NCBI GenBank assembly: GCA_963804085.1
Contig: CAWDOQ010000015.1
Span: 1-64,000 of the forward strand
Origin: Chlamydiia bacterium
GTDB lineage: Bacteria; Chlamydiota; Chlamydiia; Chlamydiales; Rhabdochlamydiaceae
Length of the DNA stretch: 64,000 nucleotides
Direction of reading: 5' to 3'
This document shows, in pieces, positions 4,583 through 5,233 of the stretch. Numbering within the stretch: position 1 is the first letter of the stretch; each line of letters starts with the position of its first letter. The notes under the pieces were generated by a model. That model saw nothing but the letters and a program-made list of their open reading frames with translations, did not search any database and was not told where the DNA came from. The position numbers and the translations under genes are program-made.

Positions 4583-5233
4583 ACATGTCGGGTGGCACGC
4601 CACTTCGTGCGCGCGTCCCCCGCGACCCCTCTTGAGCTTCAATCTGCTTTGATAAATCGCATCCTCGTCGGAGGGGCGTGTATAACACGGCCCCCCACGC
4701 GCTTCGCGCTCTCCTGCGGGTGCAATTTCTCTGTGCAGCTTGAAGCCATTGGCTGCTCGCGCGCTCACTTCCCGCCGGACTTACGTCTCGGGGCGGGTCC
4801 CTTCTCGCGTCGTGTCGCAGGGTTATTCTCGAAGAGTAGTCACAGCAGTTCGAAGTACAACAACTCGTCAGCGCCTCTTCAAGAACACCGCGATTTTCGC
4901 GGTGTTGAAAAAAGAATGGGCACTGCGACACGACGTGAGAAAGGGGCCCCGCCCGAGACGTAAGTCCGCGGGGCTGCGAAGACAAGCTGAAGTGCCAGGC
5001 GGCACTTCGGCTTTGCAAAGCAGGGGAGGGTTTTAACCCGACCTGGGGACGAGCGCGCGAGCAGCCAATCGACTCAGATCGCACAGCAAAATCGTACCGC
5101 AGGAGAGCGCGAAGCGCGTGGGGGGCCGTGTTATACACGCCCCTCCGACGAGGACACGATTTGGCAAAGCGAGGTGAGGCGCAAGGGGGCCAGCGGGGGC
5201 GGCAGGACGAGAATCGCCTGCCCCCCGACATGT
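4583..5233 (+). repeat. ~650-nt GC-rich nested inverted-repeat element (long rod-like hairpin; REPIN/MITE-like or structured ncRNA)
   Basis: Perfect IRs 4662-4719/5097-5154 (58 bp), 4748-4766/5051-5069 (19 bp) and 4776-4792/4952-4968 (17 bp); ends ACATGTCGGG/CCCGACATGT; internal hairpins 4884-4906 and 4986-5011. Confidence 0.9.

Follow-up and report, generated by a model that had tools for sequence, protein, structure and literature searches.

The stretch of DNA analysed here (the window) comprises the first 64,000 nucleotides (nt) of contig CAWDOQ010000015.1, forward strand, from a member of the Rhabdochlamydiaceae (Chlamydiota; assembly GCA_963804085.1), and our subject is a GC-rich, strongly palindromic element at positions 4583-5233. 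It lies 141 nt downstream of cydB (5374-6402, 342 aa, Pfam family Cyt_bd_oxida_II), and its neighbour on the other side, 63 nt away, is an open reading frame (ORF) of 132 aa; both neighbouring genes are on the minus strand. A 455-aa ORF, presumably cydA, precedes cydB on the same strand (the two spanning 5374-7766), with the element at the 3' side of the pair. A preliminary description had taken the element for a single molecule selected to fold on the plus strand, either an undescribed long structured RNA or a non-autonomous element mobilised as single-stranded DNA (ssDNA). We suggest instead that it is probably a non-autonomous foldback transposon, i.e. a miniature inverted-repeat transposable element (MITE) in the broad sense, and the internal-deletion relic of an insertion sequence (IS) with ends of ~300 bp.

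Architecture of the element

The nested inverted repeats of the preliminary description are borne out. Two outer stretches of 137 nt each, 4583-4719 and 5097-5233, are 80% complementary; within them, 4662-4719 is the exact reverse complement of 5097-5154, forming a perfect stem of 58 bp, and the terminal sequences ACATGTCGGG and CCCGACATGT are found as claimed. Further inverted repeats are nested inside (4719-4766/5051-5098, 4771-4803/4941-4973 and 4790-4820/4923-4953), and the side hairpin at 4884-4906 is perfect, with 10 bp. The element is also GC-richer than its flanks (0.57-0.65 inside vs 0.37-0.46), and it encodes no credible protein: ORFs of 240 aa on the minus strand and 224 aa on the plus strand match no Pfam family. 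A non-autonomous, non-coding element, as had been proposed, is thus supported.

The boundaries need a correction, since the left edge lies further out than 4583: a conserved outer module of 68 nt (4515-4582, plus strand) also belongs to the element, and an alignment of five ends shows that conservation stops at its sharp outer boundary, (A)GAGCC. This module occurs in the genome only at these five ends, namely on the left in the window copy and on both sides in the copies of contigs C16 and C19; solo copies of it, or of GTGCCTCTAGAGGCAC, were not found in the genome. It is followed by the left arm (4583-4820, plus strand), a unit of ~236 nt that runs from ACATGTCGGG on the outside to GTCGCAG on the inside (nhmmer, model positions 1-236) and that comprises, in the consensus fold described below, a terminal hairpin H1, a long-range multi-helix domain around H2 and H3, and a hairpin H5. 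The centre (4821-4922, ~100 nt) contains the hairpin at 4884-4906 and is of a type, here called A, that is also present in the C16 and C19 copies.

The right arm lies on the minus strand. Its inner part (4923-4973), delimited from the inverted repeats and the arm alignment, consists of hairpin H5 and GTCGCAG; it is interrupted by a nested hairpin module of 74 nt (4974-5047), and the outer part (5048-5233) ends in CCCGACATGT, the arm model resuming at 5043 (nhmmer match 5043-5233, model positions 1-192). The left arm and this outer part are members of different arm subfamilies. Outside it are a dozen weakly conserved bases, GTAATGGAAGCT (5234-5245), typical of short-ended subfamilies among the 139 termini listed, and the 68-nt outer module is lacking on this side. 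Contigs of three public sequencing runs skip the 74-nt module, joining 4973 to 5048 with one letter between them. Relatives of this module, ~100 nt long, replace part of the arm in copies on contigs C16, C17, C4 and C23, and it may be a second small mobile element.

Symmetry of the two strands

The preliminary description had reported an excess of G-U wobbles on the plus strand. When the left arm is set against the reverse-complemented right arm, the window copy shows 18 oppositions of the G-T type and 18 of the A-C type, besides 54 transversions; the corresponding totals for the genome's 11 complete copies are 161, 163 and 409. The folding energies are equally symmetric: the minimum-energy fold has -467.6 kcal/mol for the plus strand and -462.5 kcal/mol for the minus strand, with 14 and 12 G-U pairs, respectively. 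Both strands are far more stable than shuffled sequences (z = -32 and -31), none of 20 shuffles folding as well. A scan against Rfam assigned the element to no family, the one match, to glmS at 18.5 bits (E 0.14), falling short of the gathering score of 37.

Selection of the plus strand as one folded molecule is therefore not supported, there being no asymmetry in wobbles or energy, and the arms being of different subfamilies. The extreme predicted stability and the hairpin-rich arms would suit a single long, rod-shaped RNA gene, and one Y1 transposase gene in the window's genome would suit an element of the Y1/HUH type mobilised as ssDNA; yet besides the missing asymmetry, the missing Rfam family and the mixed ancestry of the arms, Y1 genes do not track the element, as they are present in 3 of 9 arm-bearing vs 15 of 32 arm-free genomes and none was found in G013, the genome richest in copies. 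Two well-preserved relatives carry 10-bp target duplications, which are typical of DDE transposition, and these also speak against ssDNA mobilisation. We therefore regard this reading, in either form, as highly improbable. The 650-nt rod follows from the geometry of two inverted arms and is not a selected molecule; it is a by-product, since within a copy each arm has its closest relatives elsewhere. It can be set aside as a false lead, and is not a new giant RNA.

A family of repeats in the same genome

That the element is repeated is shown by a BLAST search of its 651 nt against its own genome (a 2.13-Mb assembly in 24 contigs), which gives 65 matches falling into ~16 loci. A profile built from the left arm finds 27 arms of ~236 nt, which make up 11 inverted pairs besides five arms with a truncated or missing partner. 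Each element is built of an arm, a variable centre and an inverted arm, and three types of centre can be distinguished: type A of ~100 nt (the window, C16 and C19 copies), type B of ~170 nt and type C of ~37 nt. The arms are mosaic: within a copy, the nearest relative of one arm is not the other. The left arm of the window copy shares 97-98% identity with arms on C19 and C16, and its right arm is nearest to arms on C23, C8 and C2. The terminal inverted repeats have ACATGTCGG in common in the 139 termini listed. Many copies are truncated or mosaic, and the truncated ones retain their termini.

Chimeric reads can create palindromes, which might suggest an assembly fold-back artefact; with diverged arms, ~16 copies that differ from each other, copies in many independent assemblies, and contigs of other runs that cover parts of the element, the chance of such an artefact is negligible. 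All copies examined are intergenic and nearly fill their spacers. For 15 of the 16 loci the arrangement of the neighbouring ORFs could be determined (7 tandem, 6 convergent, 2 divergent). Most of the gaps that separate an element from the closest ORF measure 15-90 nt; four are larger (141-345 nt), and in three cases there is a slight overlap. The palindromic sequence GGCTTCC..ATAT..GGAAGCC, considered as an empty target, has no match in the genome. The possibility that single arms move on their own, each producing a duplication, was also considered and rejected (6 of 123 vs 0-5 in the control).

Several other repeats were seen near arms or elsewhere in this genome. Arrays of GTGGAC/GTCCAC motifs, inverted and spaced at ~10-11 nt, abut truncated arm termini at C19:189778-190000 and C10:268210-268290, and resemble iteron-type arrays for protein binding or some further family of repeats. 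An inverted pair of AAACGGAC/GTCCGTTT motif arrays is located at C17 ~49,600-49,800, inward of a solo arm (50231-50476). A second hairpin-rich repeat family, with GCCACGAAGTGGC... and GAGCCACGCAAGTGGCG..., has copies at C8:~1960-2100, C17:49994-50164, C2:172075-172294, C2:237204-237290, C3:52-165, C7:12144-12226, C10:62455-62640 and C19:331634-331711. One of its copies is split by an IS3-family IS of 1473 bp, which is present on C2 in two identical inverted copies, 61 kb apart; the IS3-family IS at C2:235731-237203, which contains ACATGTCGGGGG and was considered as a partner of our element, has its own ends and is unrelated. Another repeat of ~300-770 bp (mostly 300-480), with ~7-9 self-matches per copy, is found at C10:46442-47214, C10:192226-192638, C16:30339-30822, C16:42325-42693, C16:106463-106913, C17:134325-134609, C18:12391-12716, C19:148265-148547, C19:158770-159060 and C19:235165-235613.

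Distribution among the Chlamydiota

Of 24 other genera in the family, 8 have copies, as against none of 16 other families of the order; lack of a match in an incomplete genome is no proof of absence. A degenerate arm pattern matched 100 stretches in a collection of species genomes and 105 in metagenomes, and had no match in viral contigs. Among 80 listed records, most are titled Chlamydiae/Chlamydiota, Rhabdochlamydiaceae, Parachlamydiales, Simkaniaceae or Chlamydiales; the remainder are titled Verrucomicrobiae/Verrucomicrobiota, Acidobacteriota or 'uncultured bacterium', and the non-chlamydial titles are taken for mislabelled bins. The family is restricted to environmental Chlamydiota, and the preliminary description was right in pointing to this phylum. 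The largest number of copies, 71 arm matches, is found in G013 (99% complete, six contigs), where the genes between distant arm pairs are ordinary ones with no transposase among them. One empty site can be recognised at the level of gene order, the genes that flank the copy at C10:172910 being adjacent in L082 with no element between them; at the nucleotide level no empty site was found. In keeping with the preliminary description, which saw in the element a candidate for a new system, we found no account of the family in the abstracts and passages of the literature that were searched, including those from PMC9723776, PMC6305408 and PMC2018620.

A conserved fold within the arms

The preliminary description had proposed to look for covariation, and this gives a divided answer: none is seen for the 650-nt rod, but it is present within the arms. 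An alignment of 56 arms from many genomes, less than 90% identical to each other, plus one fragment of a window arm, was made with MAFFT without being fitted to structure, and a consensus fold was derived with RNAalifold. It has seven helices: a hairpin at the terminus, a domain of four helices formed by long-range pairing around two hairpins, and one further, small hairpin. In this fold 96.7% of the cells are paired, compared to 85.4% after column shuffling and 34-55% when partners are slid by 1-3 columns; 20 of the 33 pairs show compensatory changes (205 cells), several with three or more pair types, and the covariation score of 0.321 vs 0.137 is reached by none of 500 shuffles. Two G-U pairs are nearly fixed on the strand that reads from outside to inside, U6-G96 in 55 of 56 sequences and G162-U252 in 48 of 56. 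Many arms have the motif CATGTCG both near their outer end and near their inner one.

Such a fold raises the possibility that the arm is a portable, structured, cis-acting module, acting as RNA or ssDNA inside the ends of different IS. One possible role would be that of an insulator, folding on inward-reading transcripts at both transposon ends and thereby blocking expression of the transposase by read-through; transposase-less copies would then be by-products, or co-opted. The compensatory changes and the near-fixed G-U pairs favour this view, as does the occurrence of the same arms inside the terminal repeats of both ISAs1-type and IS630-type elements (see below). On the other hand, apart from three near-fixed positions, G-U and A-C cells are about equally frequent (roughly 18 vs 24), much of the covariation lies between a few subfamilies, and template switching can maintain the pairing of a palindrome in the absence of selection. 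We consider the module unlikely, though not so unlikely as to be disregarded, and a functional fold of the arm is in our view a minority reading, because related sequences can beat shuffles without selection and because nested palindromes may persist through template switching at the DNA level.

Transposases of the ISAs1 type between the arms

The link to what the family derives from is provided by metagenome contigs, in six of which transposases of the ISAs1 type adjoin the arms. In L190, a transposase of 431 aa with the domains DDE_Tnp_1 and DDE_Tnp_1_assoc, a combination that is the signature of the ISAs1 family, is located between two arms, 46 and 106 nt from their inner ends, and no terminal repeats of its own are visible. 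Homologs with 34-67% identity to it are present at the inner ends of arms in L176, L175, L160, L207 and L177, the one in L175 likewise having both domains. The copy on C16 is 74-75% identical to L190 over the arms and the inner part of the outer module. As to the window copy, the inner ~45 nt of its outer module align with the outer modules of L190 and of MITE copies in the complete genome OY970364.1 (the first ~22 nt do not), and its type-A centre resembles, over the first ~13 nt past the arm, what comes after the arm in L190. The subfamily of the window, with its outer module and type-A centre, is the one that contains an ISAs1-family transposase in L190.

The outer ends lead to the same family. 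The outer module beyond the L190 arm ends in CCCCTGG, and in the MITE copies of OY970364.1 it starts with CAGGG. Two of these transposase-less copies, L096 and L098, complete and of the window's subfamily, are bounded by perfect 10-bp direct repeats situated exactly at the ends of the module, at an offset of 65 on both sides; in a control with mismatched flank pairs, only 0-3 chance matches of at least 8 bp were obtained per 47 elements. G001 contains a canonical, arm-less IS of the ISAs1 family whose transposase is 62% identical to that of L190 and which has the same CAGGGCACAGGAAATTAA ends. For ISArsp11, another member of the ISAs1 family, CAGGG ends and a 10-bp direct repeat are given in Table 3 of PMC6305408.

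Two further features were seen around these elements. At L192:2285-2310 and L190:1960-2120 there is an additional outer layer that ends in CTGGAGTTTGGACTAATT... and is itself a hairpin; a copy of this layer is found in the DNA beside the L190 element. Tandem GTGCCC(G) motifs flank the element L026 and recur upstream of an IS630 homolog (L236), and may be a preferred insertion context or another repeat.

Other transposases and alternative explanations

Several observations weigh against an ISAs1-derived MITE, and some of them lend themselves to other explanations. The target duplications are one: a credible duplication of at least 8 bp is present in only 3 of 47 complete elements (10 bp in L096 and L098, 8 bp in L026), and none was found in the other 42 of the 47. 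The window, C16 and C19 copies show no duplication, and the right end of the window copy has no outer module at all. Moreover, the outermost ~22 nt (GAGCCTTTCCCGCTGTGGCTGA) of these three copies are not of the CAGGG type: the outer module of the window copy begins with GAGCCTTTCCC, whereas the OY970364.1 copies, L190 and the G001 IS begin with CAGGG. No transposase resembling those of ISAs1 or IS630 was found in the window's genome, and ISAs1-like genes are found in 2 of 9 arm-bearing vs 10 of 32 arm-free genomes; in G013, no match to Y1_Tnp, DDE_3, DDE_Tnp_1, IS110 or DDE_Tnp_4 was found.

A second difficulty is that the arms are not tied to a single transposase family. In L136 the space between two arms is filled by a 344-aa transposase of the IS630 family, and in L024 a truncated gene of the IS630 type lies beside an arm. 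The left arm in L136 has outside it a sequence (TATACACATCGTGAATGA...) in close agreement with the terminal repeats of IS630 homologs, which places the arms inside the ends of at least two unrelated types of IS; simple MITE logic leaves arms as internal modules of at least two unrelated IS types unexplained. This observation is among the points in favour of the portable module discussed above, although an IS630 repeat outside an arm is known from one contig, with one end visible, the right end of the L136 element being cut off where the contig stops. It remains doubtful, and a little less probable than the module as such, that in Chlamydiota the arm has been placed immediately within the terminal repeats of two or more unrelated families of transposase (ISAs1 and IS630) to control read-through or transposition in cis, in which case the hundreds of transposase-less copies would be a reservoir of the module rather than debris.

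Thirty loci with IS630-homolog transposases have no credible arm, the only two matches being weak ones in L239 (E ~0.06). In a screen for inverted repeats at IS630-homolog loci, 24 of 32 have no flanking repeat, L236, L256, L264 and L265 have flanking repeats of ~30-36 bp, and longer or displaced repeats are present in L239 (286 bp) and L253 (201 bp). No match to DDE_3 was found in G013, G010, G005 or the window's own genome, and a tblastn search of the latter with the L136 transposase found nothing. A TA, by eye, stands 1 nt outside ACATGT in most of the 139 listed termini, but it is part of the inverted repeat and, because of this, is indistinguishable from a duplication.

Transposases of still other families are found just inside arms: an IS110 transposase only 2 nt from the arm end (L072), IS66 (L184), an IS4-like gene (L158) and an IS5-like remnant (L093). 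(The inner-neighbour ORFs scanned for Pfam were all of 25 except two in the window's genome.) Some of these genes are surely secondary insertions. Their variety implies that the centre could be an insertion hot spot rather than the body of one IS. A DDE_Tnp_4 lead taken from L093 was dropped, the sole intact gene of this kind in G001 (L129) being that of an ordinary IS5-type IS without arms.

Finally, the copy at C17:118174 is syntenic with a copy in G013 (L048), the flanking genes having 78-81% amino-acid identity, and the arms cluster by genome even though this site is common to two genera; together these fit concerted evolution as well as re-insertion. They would also suit a palindromic intergenic element maintained by the host in the manner of repetitive extragenic palindromic (REP) sequences or bacterial interspersed mosaic elements (BIMEs), e.g. 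as a terminator, mRNA stabiliser or nucleoid site, which would persist by vertical descent and gene conversion and into which transposases merely insert. The intergenic position of all copies examined, nearly filling their spacers, and the mosaic arms agree with this, as do the six kinds of transposase just inside arms, the IS5-like remnant included, and the fact that no cognate transposase was found in G013 or in the genome of the window. Against it speak the patchy distribution (8 of 24 genera), the truncated copies that retain their termini, the two copies that have a perfect duplication of 10 bp and whose ends are the same as in a canonical IS, and the diverged ISAs1-type genes (34-67% identity) that hold the same position beside the arms without visible terminal repeats of their own. 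On this evidence we judge host maintenance to be improbable, and more so than a portable module.

Proposed origin of the window copy

Since the same arms flank transposase genes elsewhere, we read the family as decayed mobile elements and not as a new RNA gene, and what was found is in essence a match to a MITE, the outcome that the preliminary description had itself named as speaking against its proposal. In the ancestral IS, each end would have consisted of a short outer terminal module followed by the structured arm of ~236 nt. The window element is read as a derivative of the ISAs1 type because three of its parts agree with L190, namely the arms, the outer module over its inner ~45 nt, and the bases with which the centre begins; we file it as IS-derived and not as a member of ISAs1, because it has neither the CAGGG ends nor the duplication of 8-10 bp. 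We take the window copy to be derived from an IS and to be inert now; an ancestry of the ISAs1 type is the most probable one, though only slightly favoured on balance.

The copy could have arrived by cut-and-paste or copy-in, with a DDE transposase supplied in trans, and this cognate transposase would since have been lost from the genome. Its right end may have been replaced through recombination with another arm subfamily, and such a replacement would leave the copy immobile. Any effect that it has today would most likely be that of a long hairpin in a 3' untranslated region or of a barrier to read-through.

At the locus itself, no contig of the public runs bridges the element, and a joint of 4052 to 5376, considered as an empty site, has only 26 nt per side and is too weak. 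Among the public runs, those of DNA cover small shares of the stretch, and none of RNA is listed for it. Just to the right of the element there is a direct repeat, TTGGGGTGATTT (5256-5267 and 5312-5323); the same 11-mer also occurs on contig C2 (~236,893), where the transposase ORF of an IS3-family element ends.

For practical purposes, the family is a repeat that breaks assemblies and fills spacers in environmental chlamydiae, so that recognising it is useful for annotation and for tracing genome rearrangement. Its composite ends of ~300 bp, with an inner module that has a covarying fold and is found inside two IS families, are unusual; should this prove real, it would offer a testable example of a structured cis-element common to several transposons.

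Comparison with known systems

The closest parallels are the MITEs and foldback elements of bacteria, such as Correia, ERIC and Nezha. Like these, the elements of the window family are multi-copy, non-coding and intergenic, are bounded by inverted repeats, form a hairpin as a single strand and can be understood as internal deletions of an IS, and their copies are truncated and mosaic. They differ from MITEs in being far longer (500-900 bp, with composite ends of ~300 bp), in having in each arm a conserved multi-helix fold that covaries across genera, and in that most copies are without a recognisable target duplication and most hosts without a cognate transposase.

With REP sequences and REPINs (paired REPs), which are associated with the Y1 transposases called RAYTs, the family has in common that it is palindromic, intergenic and often arranged in inverted pairs; REP/REPIN sequences are, however, about ten times shorter, and Y1 genes do not co-occur with the window family.

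Some IS630/Tc1-mariner elements have long terminal repeats of the inverted/direct repeat (IR/DR) type, as in Sleeping Beauty-type ends, and the IS630-family transposase between two arms of ~230 bp in L136 resembles these, as does the presence of CATGTCG towards either end of many arms; L136 differs in that the canonical IS630 repeat there lies outside the arm.

Relatives within the window subfamily agree with the ISAs1 family in their CAGGGCACAGGAAATTAA ends, their 10-bp duplications and their transposase with DDE_Tnp_1 and DDE_Tnp_1_assoc. Canonical ISAs1 members, including the G001 copy, have short terminal repeats and no arms, unlike the window family, and the window copy in turn departs from the ISAs1 family in having no CAGGG end, no duplication and no transposase.

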